Source of the DNA: Octopus sinensis
Lineage: Eukaryota
Assembly: GCF_006345805.1 (NCBI RefSeq)
Contig: NW_021825942.1
Span: forward strand, 1-13,958
Reading direction: 5' to 3'
DNA length: 13,958 nucleotides
Shown: in pieces, positions 1-13,958 of the stretch
How positions within the stretch are numbered: position 1 is the stretch's first letter
Layout of the letters: the number at the start of each line of letters is the position of its first letter
The notes under the pieces: generated by a model
Databases searched by the model: none
Told to the model about the DNA's origin: nothing
What the model saw: the letters and a program-made list of their open reading frames with translations, nothing else
Program-made: the position numbers and the translations under genes

Positions 1-147
1 TTATACATATATATATACATACATATATATATATATATACATTGTATATATATATATATATATACATATATATATACATATATATATACCATATATATAT
101 ACATATATATACATATATATGCATCTCTATATATGTATATTATAATA

Positions 148-192
<45 letters not shown>

Positions 193-199
193 TAGTTAG

Positions 200-230
<31 letters not shown>

Positions 231-696
231 GAATATATATATTATATATATACACACATAGTATATATATGTACGTATGTTAGCGTCTACCAAATATTTC
301 TTCTCTATAGATTTGTCATTTATATAAGCATCTGCAGAGAGAAAGTTAAGTATACGGGTGTAGTATAAGTGAGGGGGTGTGGGGTGAGTGTGTCTGTCAC
401 TGGGTGTGAGCGTATGTGTGAGAGTCGGGTGTATATGCAGCTGCGTATGTATGCGTACGTCCATTACTGACACGTTTCGAAAAACATGCATCTGTATACA
501 TAATTACATATATATATATATGTATATATATATCTATATATATATATATATACATATATATATGGGTTGTGATGTATACACATATAGATGTATATATATG
601 TACGTAGATATACATAGGTTTATATATGTGTATATATATATATATATATGTTATGTGTACATATATAATATATATATGTATACATATATATACATA

Positions 697-735
<39 letters not shown>

Positions 736-782
736 TATTTATTTATTTATATATACACATATATATATATATATATATTATG

Positions 783-814
<32 letters not shown>

Positions 815-818
815 GATA

Positions 819-873
<55 letters not shown>

Positions 874-1560
874 GCCTGTTATTTGATATTTAATACGCAC
901 ATCAAGATATAAGTGTGGACTTAATTATATTATAGGAAGGAATCTATACAACATAACCATGACGCAATTACCGCATGTATGTACCTGTGTATATGTTGTG
1001 TATGTGCGCGTTTGTTGATGGACGTGTGTGTGTGGAGAGAAAATAGAGGAAGAAAGAGAGAGTGAGGGAGAGCGATTTATTCTATAATAATACCAACAAG
1101 ACAATCGTATGCTTAATATCCCACGAACATAATTATGTATTTATAAAAGAAAATTGTGCTATATTTATTGTATATAATAATTTATATATATATGTATATA
1201 TATATAACAATTTATATATATATATATATATTCATCTTGTATATATGTACGTGGGTATATGTATGTGTGTGGACATATATATCGACGCAAAGATAAATAT
1301 ATATTTTTATATACCTACATATGTATATATGTAAATGTGCGTATATGCATGGGTATGTGTAATACACACACACACACATCCCTCTCTCTCTGTTTCTTTC
1401 TCTCTCTCTCTATTTATCTATCTATCAGTCTATCTCTGTCTTTCTCCATCTATCCATGTATCTATATATCTAACGTGTATATATATATATTTATACATAT
1501 ATATAGATAGATAGATAAATAGATATGCCTGTATGTCTGTATGTATATATATTTATATTA
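1..1560. repeat. Compound (TA)n/(TATACA)n/(GA)n/(TG)n microsatellite field
   Basis: Directly visible dinucleotide runs (e.g. ~505-872 almost pure TA). These explain the YI/IY-rich ORFs. Confidence 0.95.
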
Positions 1561-1561
1561 T

Positions 1562-1911
1562 ATTATGGCTGCCCCCTCCTTATCGAGTATGGCCATTGCA
1601 CGAAGCTTAACTGTTACTGGTGCTGTGATCGAATGTGACTTTTTAGCCCAACTAAAGAACTACAATGTCTTGTACAAAATTGGCAACTAAAACCTTTACT
1701 GATAAATAGCCAGCTGTAGTTGTTACTGGTCTTCATGTACCTTTACATGTCGTTTAAGTCCTCCTGCCGAATTACACTCTCTTCCACATGCCCTAGATAT
1801 GATTAGTATGGTGTGTTACACCACCACCAGTGGCCAGGTTGTCACTCATCTGTCTCGTTTTATGACTACGAAGATGACTCTTGAGTCCAGCTTTACTGAG
1901 GCAGGGTCTTT
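1562..1911 (-). mobile_element. 3' fragment of an RTE-type LINE: degenerate ORF C-terminus with three C2H2 zinc fingers plus 3' UTR
   Basis: Manual minus-strand translation across two frameshifts and one stop: QRPCLSKAGLKSHLRSH...NHI/RACGRECNSAGGLKRHVKVHEDQ*.../ISKGFSCQFCTRHCSSLVGLKSHIRSQHQ* (final stop 1614-1616). A short UTR GCCATACTCGATAAGGAGGGGGCAGCC and an AT-rich tail follow, resembling RTE 3' ends. Confidence 0.75.
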
Positions 1912-1927
1912 GTGTGTGCATGTGTGC

Positions 1928-1960
<33 letters not shown>

Positions 1961-2029
1961 GGATTAAACACATAAATGTGAAACAAGGTGGAAAAAAGAG
2001 TACTCAAATACCAGTGGTAGAGTAATATG

Positions 2030-2168
2030 CTTTATTTAAAGCAGCAGAAAATTCAACAAAACCTGATACTCTGAGTTTCCGTTGCCGTTCATAAAAACTG
2101 TCCGATGAACGGCAACGGGAAACTCAGAGTAACAGGTTTTGTTGAATTTTCTGCTGCTTTAAATAAAG
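2030..2168. repeat. Near-perfect inverted repeat (63/64-bp arms, 12-nt spacer), probable inverted PLE terminal repeat remnant
   Basis: 2030-2092 is the reverse complement of 2105-2168 apart from one substitution and a 1-nt indel. The unit (~1959-2168) is bounded by (TA)n on both sides. Confidence 0.9.
2093..2140 (+). ncRNA. Minimal type I hammerhead ribozyme motif (U4C core variant)
   Basis: AAAAACUGU-CCGAUGA-ACG GCAA CGG-GAAAC UCAGA GUA/ACAGGUUUU. Stem I has 8 of 9 pairs, stem II is short and GNRA-capped, stem III is near-palindromic (ACUCAGAGU). Predicted cut after 2131. Confidence 0.65.
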
Positions 2169-2282
2169 TATATATATATATATAAAGGGAAGCTTTATGA
2201 AAATAGACAAAAGACGAAGGCAGGTGGAAAACAAACAAACAATTGTATTAGTATGGCGCTCAGGAAATATAAATAAAACAAG

Positions 2283-2320
2283 TCTTTAACGTTTCGAGCC
2301 TACGCTCTTCAACAGAAAGA
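2283..2320 (-). ncRNA. Minimal type I hammerhead ribozyme motif in the PLE 3' region (A6U core variant)
   Basis: UCUUU-CUGUUGA-A-GAGC GUAG GCUC-GAAAC GUU/AAAGA. 5-bp stem I, 4-bp stem II, loopless palindromic stem III AACGUU. Confidence 0.7.
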
Positions 2321-2484
2321 TACACAGAGAGAAAAAAAACACAGAAAGAAGGAGAGAAAAAAAATGCGTGCAGTAACTAACGAATCAACATGGCGATCTG
2401 ATTTCGGCCAGAAGTCAAAGATCAAACATGAGACGCGAGAGCGAAATTAGGGGAGATAATAGGGTTGAATGACCAGCTCCAACA

Positions 2485-2750
2485 TAAGGGTGTGTGTGTG
2501 TGTGTATGAGAGAGTATTAGTGCGTCTGAGAGGTCTGGACGTGTGTATGTATAGGGTTGGTGTATGTATTAGTATGTATTAGTATGTATTACTATGTATT
2601 AGTACGTATTAGTATGTATAAGGGTGTGTGTGTGTATGAGAGAGTATTAGTGCGTATGAGAGGTCTGGACGTGTGTATGTATAGGGTTGGTGTATGTATT
2701 AGTATGTATTAGTATGTATTAGTATGTATTAGTTGGTGTATGTATTAGTA
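2485..2750. repeat. ~134-bp tandem duplication containing (TATTAGTATG)n, inside the PLE 3' region
   Basis: Units start at TAAGGGTGTG (2485 and 2619) and share GAGAGTATTAGTGCGT...GAGAGGTCTGGACGTGTG. Confidence 0.9.
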
Positions 2751-3082
2751 TGGCACATCATATATGATGTGATGTGTAAAGTCGTGTGGTGTAGTGTGGA
2801 GAGAGGAGAAGAGGGGGAGAGGGAGGAGAGGGGGGAAAGGGGGAGAGAGAGGAGGGGAGAAGGAATGGGGAGGATGGGGAGGAGGAAAGAGGAGAGGGGG
2901 GGAGAGAGAAGAGGAGTGAGGGAGCAGAGGGAAGGGGAAGAAGAGGGAAGGAGGGAGGGAGAAAGAGGGAAGAAGGGAAGGGGAGTAGGGGTGTGTGAAA
3001 GGATGAAGGACTGAAGAAGTAGGGTCGGGGGGGAAAGGTAGGTGAGGAGGGGGAGAGGGGGTTAGATGAGGAGGGGGGAGAG

Positions 3083-3360
3083 TTTGAGACCAAATGGCGT
3101 GTAAGAGCGAAGAGAGAAGATTAATTCCTGTTCACGGCGCAAACGGGAATCCGGATGGCCTCTGTGTAAGGACAAACCGAACACAGATAGGTGTTGCAAG
3201 GAGTGGACCGGTGGAGCGGAAATGGCGAGAGACGGTGTGTCGTTCGCAAGGTGGATTCACGAAGGTGTTCCGCGAACCGGTCAGCCAAGCGGCGTCCCGT
3301 TTGTCCGATGTACAAGGAATGGCAGAGAGAGCAAGAGGCGCAATAGATAATATTGCTGGA
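3083..3360 (-). pseudogene. PLE GIY-YIG endonuclease domain, frameshifted
   Basis: SSNIIYCASCSLCHSLYIGQTGRRLADRFAEHLR /fs/ VSRHFRSTG /fs/ HSLQHLSVFGLSLHRGHPDSRLRREQELIFSLRSYTPFGL. Contains IY..CxxC..YIGQT..R..EH and the terminal RE..I..L....P.GL(N) motif typical of PLE endonucleases. Confidence 0.9.
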
Positions 3361-3376
3361 GTGCGTGTACATACAC

Positions 3377-3469
<93 letters not shown>

Positions 3470-3575
3470 CATGTGTACATATATATCGGTGAGTGGACAA
3501 ATGAAAAGAAAGAGGCACTCAACACATTTGGACATTGGTAAAACTTAAAAAGTCAATAATTTAAAACAGTTTGAA

Positions 3576-3635
3576 TCGACTTAAAGTTTCGCGGGATCTT
3601 ACTGAAATCTAGCTCTTCGCTCATAATGAAGTCGA
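3576..3635 (-). other. Degenerate hammerhead-like motif, probable decayed PLE terminus
   Basis: 7-bp stem I UCGACUU/AAGUCGA, stem II base GCG/CGC and GAAAC are present, but the core reads CAUUAUGA and the site reads UUU. Confidence 0.35.
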
Positions 3636-3649
3636 CGATATCTGTACGA

Positions 3650-4264
3650 CGGAACCGGCGTTACTTCCATTTTAACCCTAGGAGGACACCTCTTCCAGCT
3701 GGTTATCTCGTCACTGGAAAATGGTAGAGGTTCGCGCCCCTGCTTGTAATATATATCTGGTGCAGATAGGCGGCGAGCTGGCAGAATCGTTAGCAAGTCG
3801 GGCGAAATGCTTAGCGGTATTTCGTCTGCCGCTACGTTCTGAGTTCAAATTCCGCCGAGGTCGACTTTGCCTTTCATTCTTTCGGTGTCGATTAAATAAG
3901 TACCAGTTACGCACTATGGTCGATATAATCGACTCAATCCGTGTGTCTGTCCTTGTTTGTCCTCTCTGTGTTTAGCCCCTTGTGGGTAATAAAGAAATAG
4001 GTATTTCGTCTGTCTTTATGTACTGAGTTCAAATTCCGCCATGGTCGACTTTGCCTTTCATCCTTTCGGGGTCGATAAATAAAGTACCAGTTTAGCACTG
4101 GGAACGATGTAATCGACTTAATCCCTTTGTCTGTCCTTGTTTGTCCCCTCTATGTTTAGCCCCTTGTGGGCAGTAAAGAAATATATATATCTGGTGCAGA
4201 TTGCATCGATAACCAGCTGGGAGAGGCTCTTCCAGTGGTTAAAACGGTATTAACGTTGGTTCCG
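3650..4264. repeat. Imperfect ~58-bp inverted repeat pair (3650-3707 / 4208-4264) enclosing a SINE insertion
   Basis: CGGAACCggCGTTA...CCAGCTGGTTATC versus the reverse complement of GATAACCAGCTGG...TAACGttGGTTCCG; about 46/58 identical by manual alignment. Confidence 0.75.
3768..4182 (+). mobile_element. SINE family B, dimeric (full unit plus 5'-truncated unit), with 19-bp TSD
   Basis: Head GGCGGCGAGCTGGCAGAATCGTTAGC, B-box-like GAGTTCAAATTCC; second unit starts at 4000. TSD ATATATATCTGGTGCAGAT at 3749-3767 and 4183-4201. Confidence 0.9.
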
Positions 4265-4420
4265 GCTGAAGAGAGGTGTCGAGGTGGCGGTAAGTATATA
4301 TATTTATACGAGGGAGTAGTCAAATGTAACCGGAAACGTTCTCTGAGATAAACCGTTTGTAGTTCAGATTTCTGCCGCTGGAAACCAGCGTCTTCTTGTG
4401 GTGTCGTACTGTCACATTGT

Positions 4421-4545
4421 GCGTCTTTGGTTTGTAGTGCTTCTCCCATGTTCCCACATGGTTCTGGGTTCAATCCCACTGCGTGGCACTTTGGGCAAGT
4501 GTCTTCTACTATAGCGTCTTTGGTTTGTAGTGCCTCTCCCATGTT
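4421..4545 (+). repeat. 32-bp direct repeat (4421-4452, 4514-4545) flanking a 61-bp SINE A head fragment
   Basis: GCGTCTTTGGTTTGTAGTGC(T/C)TCTCCCATGTT occurs twice with one mismatch. Insert 4453-4513 matches the reverse complement of ~12868-12927. Confidence 0.9.
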
Positions 4546-4764
4546 ACTCTTTTACTCTTATATTCTTTTACTTGTTTCAGTCATTTCACAGCGGCCATGC
4601 TGGAGCACCGCCTTTAGTCGAGCAAATCGACCCCAGGACTTATTATTTGTAAGCCCAGTACTTATTCTATCGGTCTCTTTTTGCCGAACCGCTAAGTTAC
4701 GGGGACGTAAACACACCAGCATCGGTTGTCAAGCGATGTTGAGGAGACAAACACAGACACACAA

Positions 4765-4796
<32 letters not shown>

Positions 4797-4931
4797 GTAT
4801 ATATGCATCTATACGACGAGCTTCTTTCAGTTTCCGTCTACCAAATTGACTCACAAGGCTTTGGTCGACCCAAGGCTGCGGAACCATGTGGTTGGTAAGC
4901 AAGCTACTTACCATACAGCCACTCCTGCACC
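4546..4931 (-). mobile_element. tRNA-derived SINE family A with an internal ~45-bp deletion
   Basis: Head GGTGCAGGAGTGGCTGTATGGTAAG, internal (TG)n, tail of AAAAGAGT-like repeats; colinear with the 12599-12967 copy. Confidence 0.9.
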
Positions 4932-5269
4932 GTTGATTTTTGCGATGGCTTAAACCAATGAACAGTGTGCTTCCGAGAAATTCTGTTTTCTGCTCGGGAA
5001 AGCGGTTGCCGAAACATTTGTCATGTTTCAAACAGCTTACAGGGACCCTACCATGAGCATACATACATACATACATACATGCATACATACACATGTTGTG
5101 CATGTATGTATGTATGTATGCAATCTAGTATTACGTGACCTAGATTTATGAGTGCGTGCGTGTGTGTATATATGTATGTGTGAGTATACCACTAGATGGA
5201 TAGATATATATAGAGAGAGAGTTTTGCGGGCGTGTGCTCACGTGTGCATGCTTATACTCATCTAACTGT

Positions 5270-5317
5270 AATGATGAGGATGATGATGAGGAGGAGGAGG
5301 TGCAGGGGAGGAGGATA

Positions 5318-5367
<50 letters not shown>

Positions 5368-5563
5368 TTGGAGGCGAAGGAGTTTGATGGTCGTAGTTGC
5401 AGTAGCGGTTGTAACAACGAAGGAGATAATGGCTCTGTTAACAGCGATGATAGTGATAATGGTGGTAGTGGTGGTGGTGGTGGAGCTGCTGATGCTGTTA
5501 CTGCTGCTGCTGGTAACGGTGATGGTGGTGGTAGTAGTAGTAGTTGTTGTTGTTGTTGTTACT

Positions 5564-5597
<34 letters not shown>

Positions 5598-6630
5598 GGT
5601 GAGTTGTAATGGAGGTGTTGGTGGTGGTGGTTTGTAGCAGTGTTGGGGCTGGTAGTAGTTTAAGTGTTGTTGGTTAGTTGGCAATGGCGGTAGTGATGGT
5701 GTTGGTAGCGGTGGTAGCGGCGGTGGTGGCGGCGGTGGTGGCGGCGGTGGTGGCGGCGGCGGTGGTTGGGATGGTGTTTCACGTAAATCAATAAACGTGA
5801 CATTAAACAATACTTTCAGTAAATTGTGGAAATAATTTCAACAATGCGAACCTATTGTTTTATAGATAGTGTTTATGGTGGTGGTGGTGGTGGTGGTGGT
5901 GGTGGTGGTGGTGGTGGTGGTGGTGGTGGAGGTGTTGGTGGTGGTGGTGGTGGTGGTGGTGGTGGTGGTGGTGGTGGTGGTGATGGTGGTGGTGGTGGTG
6001 GTGATGGTGGTGATGGTTGTGGTGGTGGTGGTGGTGGTGGTGATGGTGGGGTTATTGATGGTGGTAGTGATAGTGGTGATGGTGGTGATAATGGTGGTGG
6101 TGGTGATGATGGTGGTGGTCTGGTGTTGTTGCTGGTGCTGTGGGGGTGCTGATGGTGGTGATGATGGTGGTGGTGGTGGTGGTGTTTGTAGTGATGATTG
6201 ATGGTTGTGATATTGATGGTTGTGGTGCTTGTATTGGTGGTAGTAGTGGCAATGGTGGTTATGATGGTTGTTGTTGTTGTTGTGGTGATAGTGGTGGTAG
6301 TGGTGGTAGTGGTGGTGGTGATAATGGTGGTGGTGGTGGTGGTGTTGCTGATGGTTGTGGTATTGATGTTTGTGATGGTTGTGTTGGTGGTAGTGGTGAT
6401 AATGGTGGTTGTGATGGTTGTTGTTGTTGTGGTGATAGTGGTGGTAGTGGTGGTAGTGGTGGTGGTGATAATGGTGGTGGTGGTGGTGGTGGTGGTGGTG
6501 CTGATGTTTGTGGTATTGATGTTTGTGATGGTTGTGTTGGTGGTAGTGGTGGTTGTTGTTGTTGTTGTTGTTGTTGTTGTTGATGTTGGTGGTGGTGGTG
6601 GTGGTGGTGGTGGTGGTGGTGGTGGTGGTG
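5270..6630. repeat. Compound trinucleotide field (GAT/GGT/GTA/GTT)n with a ~150-bp higher-order repeat at ~6197-6580
   Basis: Direct inspection; higher-order units begin near 6197, 6347 and 6500. Confidence 0.9.
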
Positions 6631-7017
6631 CGAAAACAACAGAAATAGCAGTCATACTACCGATGCCAACGTAGAAGCTCGTGACTCGATCTGCTAGAAA
6701 TTGCAAGCAACTCTCCCTCGTATCCCTCGCTTCCACCCTTTTTTGTTGCAGGCAGGACACTTGAAAACAATTTAGTTTTGACACTCTGACTAACAGTAGT
6801 GATGGTCGCGGTCGGTGCAAATTTGGTCAAACACCTGATTGATCATTGTTGACTTAAGGTTAAAGAGTAACAATAACCGACCAGGCAACACGAATTGTAA
6901 CAACAACAGCAACAAACAGTTGAAGGACAATAAAAACATCAATAGGAACGAAGACAACATCAACGTTTTAATAACATTATTAACAACAACAATATCAACA
7001 ACAACAGCAACAGCAGT

Positions 7018-7390
7018 GGAAGCGCAATGGCCCAGTGGTTAGGGCAGCGGACTCGCGGTAGGAGGATCGCGGTTTCGATTCCCAGACCAGGCGTTGTATG
7101 TGTTCATTGAGCGAAAACACCTAAAGCTCCACGAGGCTCCGGCAGGGGTTGGTGGCGACCCCTGTTATACTCTTTCGCTCCAACTTTCTCTCACTCTTTC
7201 TTCCTGTTTCTTGTCCCCGACTTCCTACGCAACCGCTGAGCCTGGATGCGCATTCATCCATCCGTCGATGCTCTCTGTTGGGGATTGACCTGCTTTCTCT
7301 TCTGCGGGTCTTACAAATAGCAAAGGACCACGTTTCGGACTTCTCTCACTGGGACGAAGACCGCTTCGCTCAACAATCAAACAAACAAAC
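7018..7390 (+). mobile_element. tRNA-derived SINE family C, tail type 1
   Basis: A box TGGCCCAGTGG, B box GTTTCGATTCC, (CAAA)n end. 7021-7203 is homologous to 11170-10988. Confidence 0.85.
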
Positions 7391-7424
7391 AACAACAGCA
7401 ACAATAAGCAGCAATAGTGGGATA

Positions 7425-7650
7425 ATTGCTTCTAACTTTGGAACAAAGCCAACAATTCTAAGAGGAGGACGATTCTAAGAATTGGTCGATTACATTGATT
7501 TATGGACTTGACAGGTACTTATTTTATCGATCTCGAAATGATGAAAAGCAATGTCATCCTTAGCGGAATTTAAACTCAAGACGTAAAGACGGATGATACG
7601 TCGCTAAGCGTTTCGTCCGTCGTGCCGATCATTCTACCGGATCGTTGCCC
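7425..7650 (-). mobile_element. SINE family B, diverged
   Basis: GGTACTTATTTTATCGA...GGAATTTAAACTC...GCTAAGCGTTTCGTCCG is colinear with the reverse complement of 3769-3930. Confidence 0.8.
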
Positions 7651-7844
7651 TAATGATGGTAATAATGGTTTCAAATTTTGGCATCAGATCAGCAATTTTT
7701 CTTTTGTTAGGAGGGGTGGCCGTAAGTCGATGAAATCAACCTCGATGTTCAACTGGCACTTATTTTACTGTCCCCTAAAAGGATGAAAGGCAAAGTCGAT
7801 TGCGGCGAAATTTGAACTCAGAACGTAAAGACAGATGAAATACT

Positions 7845-7996
7845 ATTTACATTATTTACATTTGACGGATATTTGTCCTCATCCTGTTTTTTGTTAACAC
7901 AACGTTTCGGCTGATATACCCTCCAGCCTTCATCAGGTGTCTTGGGGAAATTTCGAACCTGGGTTCTTATTCCTAAGGTATTTTTCGATGTTATTG

Positions 7997-8062
<66 letters not shown>

Positions 8063-8209
8063 TCACTGCCTGGAATCGATCTCGGAATCCTGGGGGTTAG
8101 TAGCTTGCGTTCTTAACCACTACACCATATGCATGTGGGCATATCCGTCAATTGTAAGTAATGTAAATAATGTACATAATTCCTCATCTCTTAAATATAG
8201 AACTGTATT
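7845..8209 (-). mobile_element. tRNA-headed, HHR-bearing non-autonomous retroelement with an inverted terminal copy
   Basis: Minus strand: tRNA-like head ~8132-8061 (A box TGGTGTAGTGG, B-box-like GAGATCGATTCC), (AAT)n spacer 7991-8058, HHR 7896-7941, tail to 7845. 8141-8169 is an inverted copy of 7844-7872. 12-bp TSD with one mismatch. Confidence 0.8.
7896..7941 (-). ncRNA. Minimal type I hammerhead ribozyme, canonical core
   Basis: GACAC-CUGAUGA-A-GGCUG GAGGGUAUAU CAGCC-GAAAC GUU/GUGUU. 5-bp stems I and II, palindromic stem III AACGUU. Predicted cut between 7901 and 7900. Confidence 0.85.
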
Positions 8210-8273
8210 AGATGAAATGCTGCTAAGCATTTCACCCAGCGTACTAACGACTCTGACAGTTAGCCGCCTTGAA

Positions 8274-8329
<56 letters not shown>

Positions 8330-8351
8330 GTAATAATAATAATAATAATAA

Positions 8352-8907
8352 ATGCCCTGATGCAGTACCAGACAGTGGCTCTCATGGCTTCTGATCTTAA
8401 CTGATTGGAAGTGTTATCATGTACATTGTTTTGTCTTGGTATAAAAGATGGGCTACAGCAAATATTCTGCTCAATATCACAGATTTGCTTGTCAGTTGTT
8501 TGACCTTAACCAGTTGAGCATATCCCTTAGTGGCTAACGATATGTGCATCTCTGATCATGGGCGGAAGTAGTGAAGGAGCATCAGAACCGTGTGTTCAGA
8601 GGGATTCTTTGGGGTTTTAATAATTCACTCTTGCAAACATGGGTGTTTCGTTCAACATCCTTAAACAACCCTTATTCAGGGACCTTTTGACCGGGAAGGG
8701 CTACTCAACCTGAAAGAAATTCTAACTGGGCCCCACCTGCAAGGTCATGCGCTCTTTATCTTGGTATGAGATCACCATGTCGCGCACATATGGTTGTGAT
8801 GCATGTGCCTAGTGCACCCTTATCAGACGGGTAGTCATGATGGGTATACTGGGCTTCGTATATTTTACTCCTGTGTCACTTTGATGGCATGCACTGCTCT
8901 CTCACTC
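8352..8907. mobile_element. Probable interspersed repeat fragment inserted in (AAT)n, family unassigned
   Basis: ~555 bp of complex sequence with sharp (AAT)n boundaries on both sides and no recognisable ORF. Resembles an abundant octopus repeat from memory only. Confidence 0.45.
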
Positions 8908-8995
8908 AATAATAATAATGATAATAACAACAACAACAACAACAACAACAACAAAAATAGCAACAACTACAATAATAATAATAATGATAATAATA

Positions 8996-9036
<41 letters not shown>

Positions 9037-9040
9037 TAAT

Positions 9041-9251
9041 ATTTCTACTATAGGTACAAGGCCTGAAATTTATTGGGAAAGGTCGGGTTGTTTACGTTAA
9101 AGCCAGCTCTTGACTGTTATGTATTTCAGCGATACTGACAAGATGAAAGGCAAAAAATGTCGACCTCAGTGGAATGTGAACTCAGAATTTTATTAGTTGG
9201 AAGAAATGCTCTCTAGCATTTTGTCCGACGCGCTAATGATTCTGCCAACTC
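9041..9251 (-). mobile_element. SINE family B, diverged
   Basis: GATGAAAGGCAAAAAATGTCGACCTCAGTGGAATGTGAACTCAGAA...GCTAATGATTCTGCCAACTC is colinear with other B copies. Confidence 0.8.
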
Positions 9252-9352
9252 AATAATAATGCGAACGAGGACAACAACGGCATGGCAACAATAACAACAA
9301 CAACAAGAACGTTTTAATGACAACATCAGTAATAAAAAGAACAATGCCAAGT

Positions 9353-9384
<32 letters not shown>

Positions 9385-10179
9385 AAAATCGATAGCATCA
9401 CAGCAACAACAACAATTATAAAGTATCTGGGTGATAATAAATACCTTCAACAGTAACAATCCAAAAAGAAACAATAAATACCTAACAACAAATCAAGACT
9501 AAAATCTTAAACAACAACAACAACGTAACGATAACAGTAACAATAGGAACAACAACAATAACAGCAACAATCTATAATGAAATGTAAACTTTAATTAAGA
9601 CGTGACCAAAATGGTGGAACTATGCCAAGATGAAGATATATTATCGATGTGGTGGAGAAGATTGTGTGGGGTTGTAGTGACAGGATGATGTTTGATTGTT
9701 GCTCTTATATTTGATGCCTTTCCTTCACAAAATCGGAATAACTGCGGCCCGTTTGAGAAGCGAAACCCCGCGAGGTGACGGTGGCTGCTTCAGCGAGAGC
9801 CGCTGGCCATTCTCCGCGGCAACGCCTTAGGAGACATGGTAAAACACGCCATTTGTACTGAGGGGTAGCACCTGTTACTCCCACCAAATCTTCTGTCGCT
9901 TCATTCTCTCCCCGTATCCCCCCCTTTTCTTTGTTTCCTTGGTAAGGTGGTATTCGGGGTTTTATTCTCTCTCGATAATTTGATTTATTTATTGCTCTTT
10001 TACTTTCGTTTTTCTCAGTAGAAATATGTTAATAAAAGGTCTTTCAATTAGAAGAAAAGAATATGTGTCCCAATTTATTCTTGAAGGTGATGCTCCAACA
10101 TGGGCACACATTCCTTGCCCTGCCCTGGCTGTCTGTTAATGTTGATGGTGATAATGGCAGTCTTGTTGACGTGCCGTGC

Positions 10180-10230
<51 letters not shown>

Positions 10231-10383
10231 AAATAAGAAAATGGAGAAATATATCTAAATCAATCATCAACTATCAGATAATACCCAATCAATACTTTAT
10301 TAAACCACTACACAATAGCAATGGTATTATACATTAATATAGTACAAATATAACAAGACATAGAAATAGAAATAGAAATGCAT

Positions 10384-10515
10384 TTACATTGTAGCTGACA
10401 GCTGTTTCGGCCGTGAAGACAGGTATGTCTCATTTAACCTGTTAGCCATATAAAGCAGGTATAAATGAGACATTAACAAGAATATCTCACGGCCTCTTCA
10501 GAGATTTTAATGCAA
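10384..10515 (-). ncRNA. Type I hammerhead ribozyme with extended stem II, within a (TA)n-flanked unit (~10229-10585)
   Basis: UUGCAUU AAAAU CU-CUGAAGA-GGCCGUGA[70 nt]UCACGGCC-GAAAC AGCU GUC/AG CUAC AAUGUAA. Inner helix 10425-10441/10456-10473; AATAAA downstream (10296-10301, minus). Confidence 0.85.
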
Positions 10516-10652
10516 GTATGCGTACAAATCCTAAAAAATTTACATGTAAATATAAATATGTGTGCATACACACTCATATTCTTACATATATATATATACA
10601 CAATAATACAATATAAACAGTATAAACAATGTATATATATATGTGGGATGAT

Positions 10653-10832
10653 ATACTCTTTTATTTGTGTCAGCCATTTGACTGCGGCCATGCTGAAGCA
10701 CCTCTTTAGTCGAACAAATACCGATTTATGCAAACATAAAACATACACACACACACACACATATATTTATTTATTTATCTAGGCGTGGATGTGTGCTAAG
10801 AAACTTACTTCTCAACCTCATGGATCCGGATT

Positions 10833-10835
<3 letters not shown>
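10653..10835. mobile_element. SINE family A fragments (tail 10653-~10720 minus; head 10781-10835 plus)
   Basis: CATTTGACTGCGGCCATGCTGAAGCACC matches the A tail; AGGCGTGGATGTGTGCTAAGAAACTT matches the A head. Confidence 0.7.
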
Positions 10836-10863
<28 letters not shown>

Positions 10864-10867
<4 letters not shown>

Positions 10868-11170
10868 CGTGATCACCGTGACCGACCAGGCTATCAGATG
10901 TTGCTACACATCGCTGGTCACAATGTACTTCGCATTGTTTTAGCCTTCAAATGACGCCAGCCCACTGGCTAAGTGAGCAGGCCAAAAGAAGAAAGAGTGG
11001 GAGAAAATTGTGGCGAAAGAATACAGCAGGGATCGCCACTAACCACTGCTGGAGCCTCGTGGAGCTTTAGGTGTTTTCGCTCAATAAACACTCACAACGC
11101 CCCGTCTGGGAAACGAAACCGCGATCCTACGACCGCGAGTCCACTGCCCTAATCACTGGGCCATTGCGCA
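10864..11170 (-). mobile_element. tRNA-derived SINE family C, tail type 2
   Basis: Head GCGCAATGGCCCAGTGATTAGGGCAG; ends in (TCACGGTGA)2 next to (TA)n. Confidence 0.85.
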
Positions 11171-12102
11171 AAGATCCCAGTAGGGGACGAAATAACCGAC
11201 TTATACCCAACCCCGAAATTGCAAGCCTTATATCAAAATTTGAAAGCAAGATTCGTTTCATTTACAGGCGAAAATAGTCAGTATACCAGAAAAGCCTTAG
11301 GATTTTTAGTTCTGTAAGATCGGCGCTCTACCTGCATAAGATACTTGTTTTCGGTCTAAAATACTTATCTGGCCCCTGCTTGTTTTGCGTTTGGCAGAAC
11401 TTTTGATGGGAACATTCCACCAATATTATTTATTTGATTTTATTCTATGTTAGAAATATGTTTTCTATTTATCCACGAGCAGTTCTTTATACGGAAAATA
11501 TTGTATATTGTTTTAACAATAACATCATGCTTCGTAGAAAGGAAATATTTTAATAACCTTTTTTCGACAGCTGTTTATTACATATGTAATAACTTCCGCC
11601 GATGTTTGACACAAAGTCCGCATTTTCTACAGCTTCCTGCTCGTTAAATACTTCACAGTCGTTTTTGTTCCACGAATATGTTCAAACTATCTCCTGTTCT
11701 TGAATTGCAAAAGCTTAACTTTCAAATTGTGTTATGATGTAATCGTCACATGTCCAACAAAAACTACACTTCCTGTCGACATTTCCGGAAAACATACATA
11801 TGCAAAAACCTTGTTGTTAACGTACGTTGCAACGTTTCTCCACCAGATTTTTTTTTTTTTTTTCTTTTAAAGCATATACATCGAGCAGTAACGAGGTCTC
11901 ATGCAACAGTTACCCCACGCTGCTTCCTGAAAACCTTCCTCTTGCCTTGCATAATTCTGGTTTCCTCTCCTACGAGCGCTTTGTCGGTGTATTTGCCGAT
12001 GCTGCAGTCGTGTAGCAGGCTAGACTTCGTTTCAGTAACATCATACAACACTCAAAGCCTGTCTGGCTTGGCTTGGCTTTAAACAATATTCTCAGATATT
12101 TT

Positions 12103-12335
12103 CTCTTTACTTGTTTTAATCATTGGATTGCGGCCATGCACGGTACCTCCATGAAATGTTTTAGTCAACAAATCAACCCTAGTGCTTAGGCATTTTTTTT
12201 AAAGCGTCTTGCTTATTTTTTCCGTGTCCTTTGCCGAACCGCTAAGACATGAGGACGCAAATAAACCAACACCGGTTGTCAAATGGTGACGGCGGAGAAT
12301 AAACACTGACAAAAAGACACACACACAGACTAATA
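12103..12335 (-). mobile_element. SINE family A, diverged 3' part
   Basis: TTTACTTGTTTTAATCATTGGATTGCGGCCATGC...TTTGCCGAACCGCTAAG...CCGGTTGTCAA. Confidence 0.8.
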
Positions 12336-12525
12336 TACTTAAACACGCGCATGCGCACATACATGCACACAACATACACACAAATATATATACATATATG
12401 CATACATTTGTGTGTGTGTGTGTGTGTGTGTATAACTTCGTTTACTCATTTAGTTAGATTGTATCCATGCTGGACACCGTTTTGGATGTTTACCTATTCA
12501 TCTAAACACACACACTCACACATAG

Positions 12526-12558
<33 letters not shown>

Positions 12559-12598
12559 ACACACACGCTCACACACATGTATATATGGGCAGGTGTAG

Positions 12599-12967
12599 CT
12601 CTCTTTACTCTTTTACTTGTTTCAGTCATGTGACTGCGACCATGCTGGAGCACCGCCTTTAGTCGGGCAACTCGACCCCAGGACTTATTCATTGTAAGCC
12701 TAGTACTTATTCTATTGGGCTCCTTTTAAACACACCAGCATCGGTTGTCAAGCAATGCTAGGGGGACAAAAACACACACACATATATATATATATACATA
12801 TACACGACGGGCTTCTTTCAATTTCCGTCTACTAAATCCACTCACAAGGCTTTGGTCAGCCTGAGGCTATAGTAGACGACACTTGCCCAAGGTGCCATGC
12901 AGTGGAACTGAACTCGGAACCATGTGGCTCGTAAGCAAGCAACTTACCACACAGCCACTCCTACGCC
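12599..12967 (-). mobile_element. tRNA-derived SINE family A, both ends present
   Basis: A box TGGCTGTGTGG, B box GAGTTCAGTTCC, CORE-like ACCTTGGGCAAGT, tail of AAAAGAGT-like repeats. Confidence 0.9.
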
Positions 12968-12989
12968 TAAAAGAAATTATTTGAGGTTC

Positions 12990-13622
12990 CAGCGAGCTGT
13001 GTACTAAGAATTATTTTCCCGCAGTTCCATGGCGTAGCACTTTGGACAAATGTCTTCTACTATAGATACAGGCTGACCAAATCCTTGGATGGGAAAGAAA
13101 GAAGGTAAAGAGATCAAGTCACCTTCTTGTGTCATACCGACTCATAAGGGCCGGTTTCCGACTTTTATGGCGTATATATTTCCCCACCTGGATAGGACGT
13201 CGGTCCCGTCACAGGATTACTCACTTTTGCCAGCTGAGTGGACTTGAGTAACGTGAAACGAAGTGGCTTGCTCAAGAACACAATGCAACGCCCGGTCCAG
13301 GAACCGAAACCACAGTCTTGCGATCATGAGTCCAAAATCTTGACCGCTAAGCCACGAGCCTCTACAATCTTTGTGACTGGATTTGACAGACGGAAACTGA
13401 AAGACGCCTGTCGTATATATATGTGAGTGTGCGTATGTATGTGTGTATGTGTGTGTGTGTGTGTCTTTGTGTTTGTACACCACCACTGCTTGACAGCCGG
13501 TGTTGGTGTGTTTACGTCCACATAACAGACCGATAAAATAACTACCACGCTTAAAAAAAATAAGTATTGGGGCGATTCGTTCGACTAAAATTCTTCAAGA
13601 CGGTGCCCCAGCATAGCCGTAT
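12990..13622 (+). mobile_element. Diverged SINE family A split by SINE D (pieces ~12990-13088 and ~13365-13622)
   Basis: ...GTCTTCTACTATAG...GACCAAATCCTTG resumes as CTTTGTGACTGGATTTGACAGACGGAAACTGAAAG. Confidence 0.75.
13093..13362 (-). mobile_element. tRNA-derived SINE family D
   Basis: Head GAGGCTCGTGGCTTAGCGGTCAAG...GGTTTCGGTTCC is related to the family C head; the body is different and the tail is pyrimidine-rich. Confidence 0.8.
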
Positions 13623-13659
13623 TGTATATATATTCATCCACGTATAATACAAAGCAGAA

Positions 13660-13958
13660 ATAGTCTTTTCTACCCTAGGCACAAGGCCGGAAATTTTGGG
13701 GGAGTTGACCAGTCGATCAGATCTACTCCAGTATGCAACTGGTACTTAATTTATCGACCCCAAAAGGACAAAGACAAAGTCGACCTCGGCGGGATTTAAA
13801 CTCAGAACATAACGGCAGACGAAATACCTATTTCTTTATTGCCCACAAGGGGCTAGACACAGAGAGGACAAACAAAGACAGACAAACGGCTTAAGTCGAG
13901 TATATCGACCCCAGTGCGTAACTGGTACTTAATTTATCGACCCCGAAAGGATGAAAGG
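13660..13958 (-). mobile_element. SINE family B, multimeric, runs off the window end
   Basis: Same unit junction AAAGAAATA|GGTATTTCGTCTG at 13829/13828 as at 3999/4000. Confidence 0.9.

Follow-up and report, generated by a model that had tools for sequence, protein, structure and literature searches.

An insertion that splits a host SINE

A short insertion in Octopus sinensis DNA joins a tRNA-like head to a hammerhead ribozyme motif, which raises the question of what element these parts come from and what machinery mobilized them. The insertion lies in the window analyzed here, a stretch of 13,958 nt (contig NW_021825942.1, positions 1 to 13,958). It covers 365 nt (7845-8209) inside a host SINE copy (7725-8270, plus strand), which it splits and which is not part of the element. 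The target site duplications (TSDs) on its left (7833-7844, plus strand) and right (8210-8221, plus strand) are identical at 11 of 12 bases. When the insert was excised, the host SINE rejoined and aligned without a break with the window copy at 3768-3934 (78% over 168 nt).

A sequence-only reading of the window had described a discrete 365-bp insertion splitting a SINE and composed of a tRNA-like head, an (AAT)n spacer, a minimal hammerhead and an inverted copy of its 3' end placed upstream. The insertion and all of these parts were recovered. On the minus strand, the tRNA-like head (8059-8139) consists of a 5-nt leader followed by a tRNA-like stretch, and the same head is found 3' of a Penelope/Poseidon-type open reading frame (ORF) described below. 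A putative Pol III A box (8117-8127) and B box (8072-8082), recognized by sequence against a published consensus (PMC8969392) and by conservation in the family, lie within it; the B box has two mismatches here and one in the family majority. The (AAT)n spacer (about 7993-8058, minus strand) is variable in length, and nested insertions are frequent in it in other copies. The pseudo-LTR tail (7845-7992, minus strand) terminates at what we call the short 3' end and overlaps the codons at the N-terminal end of the ORF, although the position of the family start codon (7970-7968) reads ATA in the window copy. It contains a minimal type I hammerhead motif devoid of helix III (7896-7941, minus strand), with predicted cleavage at 7901/7900. 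A 4-nt microhomology connects the head to an inverted, 5'-truncated second arm (8141-8207, plus strand). Only this plus-strand arm carries the 33-nt "tail" extension typical of Penelope-like elements (PLEs), which defines the long 3' end and is followed by two bases matching the continuation of the ORF (together 8175-8209).

The same site in the host SINE was hit three times, apparently independently (window 7833-7844, L009, and L173:3022-3477), which suggests a target preference; in L173 the divergence of the host flanks visibly exceeds that of the element. The window holds other repeats as well. An abundant repeat (8352-8907; also in L007, L016, L018, and L021) often sits within (AAT)n tracts, including the spacer of the family studied here. 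A long near-perfect hairpin at 2027-2173, matched below cutoff by plant miRNA models of Rfam, is likely a MITE-like repeat, and segments 7022-7203 and 10988-11169 are an inverted pair (88%) of a different tRNA-headed SINE.

The insert belongs to a large family

A 34-mer from the hammerhead had 2,043 exact matches in the genome and a 34-mer from the head had 824, with none for the reversed control in either case. Exact counts fell from 824 in the head to 269 (3' untranslated region [UTR]) and 376 (EN end) just upstream in the element, though the upstream patterns contain no CpG. The fraction of copies that match such a pattern exactly was 12/28 for the EN end, 4/30 for the 3' UTR, 5/68 for the head, and 4/92 for the hammerhead, the last two measured in samples not selected for those parts. 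Normalization gave, with a wide error, about 1,000 to 2,000 EN ends and about 2,000 3' UTRs; for the head and the hammerhead, as exact matches were just 5/68 and 4/92, the totals are of the order of 11,000 and 47,000 segments, respectively.

The association of head and hammerhead is not unique to the window, since the tail followed within 400 nt of the head at 25 of 30 loci selected by the head. At the 5 others, a different repeat came after the head, and the tail was found further on in 2 of them. The family sequence, with the same sharp long end, was also present in three large sequencing runs from organisms coded A, B, and E. RNA data sets matching the family, which were small shares in unrelated metagenomes, were left out, as was the depth of head versus tail in the runs because it depended on a likeness filter. 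By its sequence, the insert is a short copy of a Penelope-type element's end, one of thousands in the genome.

The partner is a Penelope/Poseidon-type element of the same genome

An RVT_1 scan was unspecific for the partner. An RT-thumb motif, of which the partner carries a variant, gave 0 matches in the genome and in viral contigs, and a generic hammerhead pattern gave 72 matches versus 15 for the control, with no partner among them. Linker-bearing (Neptune-type) families, obtained by a GIY-YIG scan and possessing intact ORFs of 775 to 781 amino acids (aa), were rejected: they have no similarity to the tail and a different hammerhead, and the main family ends in (TA)n. Within the EN coding region of these families, the long end had a 15-nt match that was attributed to chance. 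A third PLE family was likewise rejected.

Several sequences met in these searches are described for their own sake. In the young linker-bearing family (L091 to L100, e.g., L093:2532-4874), the 781-aa ORFs are intact and overlap an upstream ORF of ∼479 aa, the hammerhead is a U3-A8 variant, and copies finish in (TA)n at the 3' end. A second short hammerhead family that ends in (TA)n (L145, L147, L158, L160, and L193), with no ORF seen nearby, is likely a nonautonomous PLE derivative. Searches with tail peptides returned short copies, one Octopus sinensis gene model, and short proteins, none of them RT sized. Residues 1 to 36 of the gene model (P0002), a cysteine-rich membrane protein with a weak TNFR-like Pfam match, correspond to the N-terminal peptide of the element, possibly through exonization via the element's start codon or through an annotation artifact. 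In the short proteins P0124 to P0126, P0135, and P0139, a related peptide that overlaps the hammerhead is repeated in tandem, a hint that related pseudo-LTRs form head-to-tail arrays in other organisms.

The sequence-only reading had proposed a search for the partner via PLE termini; the partner family was found through a Poseidon-type RT query, L233, taken from PLE proteins of metagenome contigs that had been selected with a sequence motif. In the best 30 RT loci of this family, the head was present downstream in 15 and the tail in 18. The head started about 25 nt past the stop codon of the ORF (26 to 28 nt past its last codon in 4 of 6 copies measured, with one deletion and one not called), and 11/11 aligned heads from RT-selected loci continued into the ORF end. 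Among 30 other loci selected by the 5' part of the ORF, 24 had the tail directly upstream, 4 of which also had the head, and in L349 the tail runs in frame into the ORF. Moreover, identity between the window tail and the 3' ends of RT-bearing copies was 79 to 97% (13 copies). Since head and tail flank the partner ORF and the window tail is this similar to the element's ends, we consider the insert to be the element's own 3' pseudo-LTR, including the head. The earlier view of an independent tRNA SINE with a borrowed PLE tail gave way at this point, the head being part of the pseudo-LTR at half of the RT-selected loci.

The majority sequence of the element, built from 24 copies, contains a single open frame of 827 codons that is 37% identical to L233 over residues 72 to 818 and 29% identical to the linker-bearing family of this genome. 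The single copy L364 was 36% identical to L233 (E value, 6e-114). Of the two sets compared, the element was closer by bit score to the motif-selected metagenome PLEs (490) than to the linker-bearing family (202). L233 has an RVT_1 match and a weak GIY-YIG match. The stop-free pieces of the decayed copies L364 and L345 had no Pfam or PDB match, so the domain assignment follows from similarity to L233. No intact ORF was seen among the copies examined, and the family appears decayed. Mean pairwise identity was 89.4% for RT segments and 88.4% for short-copy tails; long and short copies are thus similarly diverged, and their ages overlap. The tail majority keeps an open frame, as do 135 of 5,000 shuffles, and this frame suggested the ORF start; indeed, the hammerhead-bearing tail encodes the beginning of the element's ORF. 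Internally deleted copies (L376, L379, L380, L385, L396, L397, and L404) contain a tail, a few hundred bases of the 5' part of the ORF, and then a head or a tail again. Together, these comparisons identify the unit as the 3' pseudo-LTR, head included, of a decayed autonomous-type Penelope/Poseidon-like family of the same genome.

Inverted copies pair a long with a short 3' end

The copies terminate at two 3' end positions ∼33 nt apart: out of 133 ends, 71 were long, 61 were short, and 1 was different. An inverted pair was present at 42 of 82 loci. Among the 45 inverted pairings scored, in which three loci are counted twice, 43 united one long and one short end, and so did 26 of 27 when only sets chosen without regard to the long end were counted. 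The 2 exceptional pairings were alternatives at loci that also yielded a long/short pair. The longer arm could be either one (16 and 15 pairings, with equal arms in 12). A TSD-like repeat scoring at least 8 flanked 33 of the 45 pairings, versus 9 of 400 controls with mismatched flanks. The head-to-head junction of the window copy has a 4-nt overlap that recurs in L173. No head-to-tail array of units was found among the 90 short-copy loci examined, where copies were single or head-to-head, and L040 contains an inverted tandem of a partial tail (∼18 inverted units of ∼76 nt each, upstream of a head). L394:615-1925 is a head-to-head palindrome in which both arms pass the long end into the 5' part of the ORF (to residues 165 and 186).

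Inverted arms, a tail at one end, and a short TSD form a pattern described for PLEs (PMC8557442, PMC3846280). In vitro, the Poseidon protein of the anole cuts both target strands and extends both, and its RT uses two internal start sites that delimit the tail (PMC11167929). The PLE-style geometry and mobilization proposed from the sequence of the window were supported by the long/short pairings, the TSD frequency, and the identification of the partner element.

The tRNA-like head is a candidate Pol III promoter

The A and B boxes are 34 nt apart in the window copy and 33 nt apart in the family majority, which matches the consensus at 11/11 positions (A) and 10/11 positions (B). When the majority head was compared with 20 tRNA sequences of the genome, the best match was tRNA-Arg(TCT) (46/73; z score of about 8), with tRNA-Ala nearly equal. 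ARAGORN did not report the head of the insert, and Rfam at an E value of ≤1 reported neither the head nor the hammerhead.

We then considered where copies begin. Out of 44 head-bearing arms, all selected by the tail or the end and not by the head, 39 began at the head (from −16 to +40 relative to its start), 24 of them within −9 to +8, and 5 ran on upstream. Exact counts were flat over 100 nt upstream of the head, and the arms truncated within the tail (75/188) ended at evenly spread positions. L378, a natural tandem, reaches upstream of an intact head. L394 and L401 start with the head and then go into the 5' part of the ORF; they were rejected as full-length head-started copies, as their ORF breaks off at residues 186 and 139, respectively.

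No T4 run occurs in the short unit or on the sense strand of the 2,576-nt element majority, where 2.9 to 4.5 were expected. The deficit is modest: its P value was 0.008 with base shuffling and 0.03 and 0.014 with codon nulls, but Markov nulls gave 0.07 (dinucleotide) and 0.22 (trinucleotide). The element majority lacks G4 runs as well. Two other PLE ORFs of the genome have 9 and 10 T4 runs, and 9 of 9 metagenome ORFs have 3 to 11. In the long element, a hairpin with an energy of about −10.5 kcal/mol reaches across the start of the head, so stalling of the RT could produce the same step at the 5' end. Two indirect lines, the clustering of 5' ends and the T4 deficit, make it likely that the head is a Pol III promoter.

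The hammerhead motif has a complete core, and 5' ends are not enriched at its predicted cut

The hammerhead (7941-7896) has a complete core, a stem I of 5 bp, a stem II of 6 bp, an extra base between positions 9 and 10.1, and a palindromic CG instead of helix III, an architecture shared with minimal hammerheads of metazoan PLEs (PMC4209133). A descriptor of the motif matched the family majority once and none of 20,000 dinucleotide shuffles, in agreement with the PLE-type minimal hammerhead recognized earlier. The same type without helix III gave 8 distinct matches, 5 of them on the sense strand, among 116 metagenome PLE loci. Compared with shuffles, fold energy was not significant for the hammerhead, and for the stem predicted around the short 3' end, 2 of 3 copies showed no gain in stability.

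Core and stems were intact in 49 of 77 copies. CpG changes aside, the core has a single common variant, at the free position N7 (12/89), which was also seen in three DNA-type runs. We found no covariation of the stems within the family, with 2 double-sided pair-keeping changes in 874 pair observations, and decay of the hammerhead in the family looks neutral. Across other PLE families, the stems differ yet still pair, in matches to a descriptor that itself selects for pairing. Furthermore, 5' ends were not enriched at the cut site (7 versus 6.1 expected in the 75 truncated arms), and the sense RNA of a copy contains one hammerhead. A role for self-cleavage, which the sequence-only reading had attributed to the family, or for circular RNA received no backing from either the 5' ends or the covariation. 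Because of the lack of enrichment at the cut, the copied template is likely uncleaved RNA. Since the predicted cleavage would detach the start codon from the rest of the ORF, the hammerhead may have a regulatory role.

DISCUSSION

The sequence identity of the insert with the element's end, the insertion geometry, and the clustering of 5' ends are direct observations. In the reading that we favor, with a probability of roughly 0.6, the insert is a short pseudo-LTR copy whose tRNA-like promoter motif likely drives a Pol III RNA that would be copied by the protein of the family. A PLE that has captured a tRNA-type promoter would in this way give off a SINE-like RNA of its own. Pol III would initiate at the head and produce an RNA of ∼300 nt containing the head, (AAT)n, the hammerhead motif, and the tail. 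The family's own RT/GIY-YIG protein would bind this short RNA, presumably uncleaved, and copy it into new sites, cutting the two target strands about 8 to 14 bp apart. cDNA synthesis would be primed on each strand at its own internal site, the two sites lying 33 nt apart, as in vitro for the anole Poseidon, so that each insertion would receive one long and one short end, and the two cDNAs would be joined head-to-head through microhomology. Any copy that retains its head intact and has a long end could then act as a further source, which would explain why short copies outnumber ORF-bearing ones ∼5- to 10-fold. More tentatively, the whole 2.6-kb coding element may be driven by Pol III from its upstream pseudo-LTR and purged of T4 runs, the 3' or solo pseudo-LTR emitting a self-propagating SINE.

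The step at the head might instead reflect ordinary 5' truncation, in which the RT stalls or folds back at the hairpin that overlaps the start of the head and the head is a dead SINE relic in the 3' UTR. PLEs are typically 5' truncated with inverted arms (PMC8557442), palindromes occur at the inverted junctions of rotifer Penelopes (PMC3846280), and a large share of the arms already end within the tail. Yet truncation within the tail is even and counts are flat upstream of the head, whereas the head is where 39 of the 44 arms end; both Pol III boxes are still near consensus and correctly spaced; and the T4 deficit of the ORF is left unexplained, so we regard this account as rather unlikely. 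Another scenario would have an independent tRNA SINE with a PLE-derived tail come first, the long element gaining its head by recombination or template switching and the two forming separate lineages. The smaller number of long copies and the standard SINE layout of a tRNA head and a partner-derived tail (PMC10886601) agree with it. However, the fixed distance of the head past the stop codon, the continuation of all aligned RT-selected heads into the ORF end, and the lack of a headless long-element subfamily among loci retrieved by other criteria make it improbable.

Retrozymes have been linked to PLEs (bioRxiv 10.64898/2026.07.22.740005, PMC7229834), and the family majority has a full hammerhead core, with a common non-CpG variant at N7 only. 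A similar cycle could be envisaged here, with hammerhead cleavage and ligation yielding a circular RNA as the transposition intermediate. The copies are, however, single or head-to-head and not head-to-tail, with one hammerhead per sense RNA and no excess of 5' ends at the cut. In addition, hammerhead cleavage is dispensable for insertion of the anole Poseidon, on which hammerhead mutations had no effect (PMC11167929). We therefore consider such a cycle very improbable and retain the short pseudo-LTR copy with a likely Pol III promoter as the best explanation.

Most features of the family have counterparts in described elements. As in Penelope/Poseidon PLEs such as PAc of Anolis (PMC11167929) and rotifer Pen2a (PMC3846280), an ORF of about 830 aa would encode an RT plus a GIY-YIG at the C terminus, the pseudo-LTR holds the ORF start and a minimal hammerhead, and insertions have an inverted 5' arm, a tail of 30 to 40 nt at one end, and a TSD of 8 to 14 bp. 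Unlike these PLEs, whose promoters are described as Pol II-like with TATA/Inr (PMC3846280), a tRNA-type A/B box lies in the head of the octopus repeat, this head is where most copies begin, and the ORF has no T4 runs. The schistosome repeats Sm-alpha and Sj-alpha (PMC6765202, PMC8490949) share the succession of a Pol III-type promoter and a type I hammerhead in a short repeat, a precedent that had been invoked for the insert. They are described as often tandem, lose the promoter on cleavage, and have no autonomous partner named in the sections of these reports consulted, whereas the octopus hammerhead is minimal, its copies are dispersed and inverted, and a parent PLE shares the head. A small-RNA-derived Pol III promoter within a terminal repeat is also known from the TRIMp3 elements Cassandra, Helenus, and Ajax (PMC10886601); those are noncoding LTR elements, whereas the octopus repeat is the PLE pseudo-LTR of a protein-coding family. 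Short noncoding units related to pseudo-LTRs and presumed to be moved by PLEs include non-LTR retrozymes and nonautonomous PLEs (bioRxiv 10.64898/2026.07.22.740005, PMC7229834; MRC1 of Chlamys, PMC8557442), and further nonautonomous derivatives exist (PMC6685494). No tRNA promoter is reported for them in the parts of these sources covered, and retrozymes form head-to-tail arrays with circular RNA.

Like tRNA SINEs (SINE2), the octopus repeat has a head with A and B boxes, a length of about 300 nt, a high copy number, and TSDs, but what makes up its 3' part is a PLE pseudo-LTR, which has two fixed ends, and not a LINE tail or a simple repeat. Octopus tRNA SINEs, including OK, OR1, and OR2, were reportedly described by Ohshima and Okada in 1994. 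Octopus OR2 is a CORE SINE (PMC4758252), whereas (AAT)n directly follows the head here. In the literature searched, covered in part and also including PMC6962438, PMC8967140, PMC4758252, and PMC3531059, with Repbase, Dfam, and SINEBase aside, we found no PLE with a tRNA-type promoter and no octopus tRNA SINE moved by a PLE, though a deposited entry may already contain the sequence with a different name. The parts thus have precedents in Sm-alpha, retrozymes, and Cassandra/Helenus, and our searches of that literature did not find the combination.

SINEs are by definition Pol III RNAs that LINEs move. Here the partner is a Penelope-like element that itself owns the promoter motif, which would offer a direct route to the birth of a SINE and would widen to PLEs the theme of a Pol III promoter in a terminal repeat known from Cassandra and Helenus. 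The thousands of short insertions are an in vivo record of PLE integration that can be mapped genome-wide, and the rule of one long and one short end is what two-strand cutting and two internal RT start sites predict. Should Pol III also make the long RNA, how the ORF of an uncapped RNA gets translated and what purpose is served by a hammerhead that cuts downstream of the start codon become testable questions. As the family is apparently decayed, its interest is mainly evolutionary and mechanistic: if the whole coding element does run on Pol III and its pseudo-LTR emits a SINE, that SINE would have been born inside its own partner and be identical to that partner's end.
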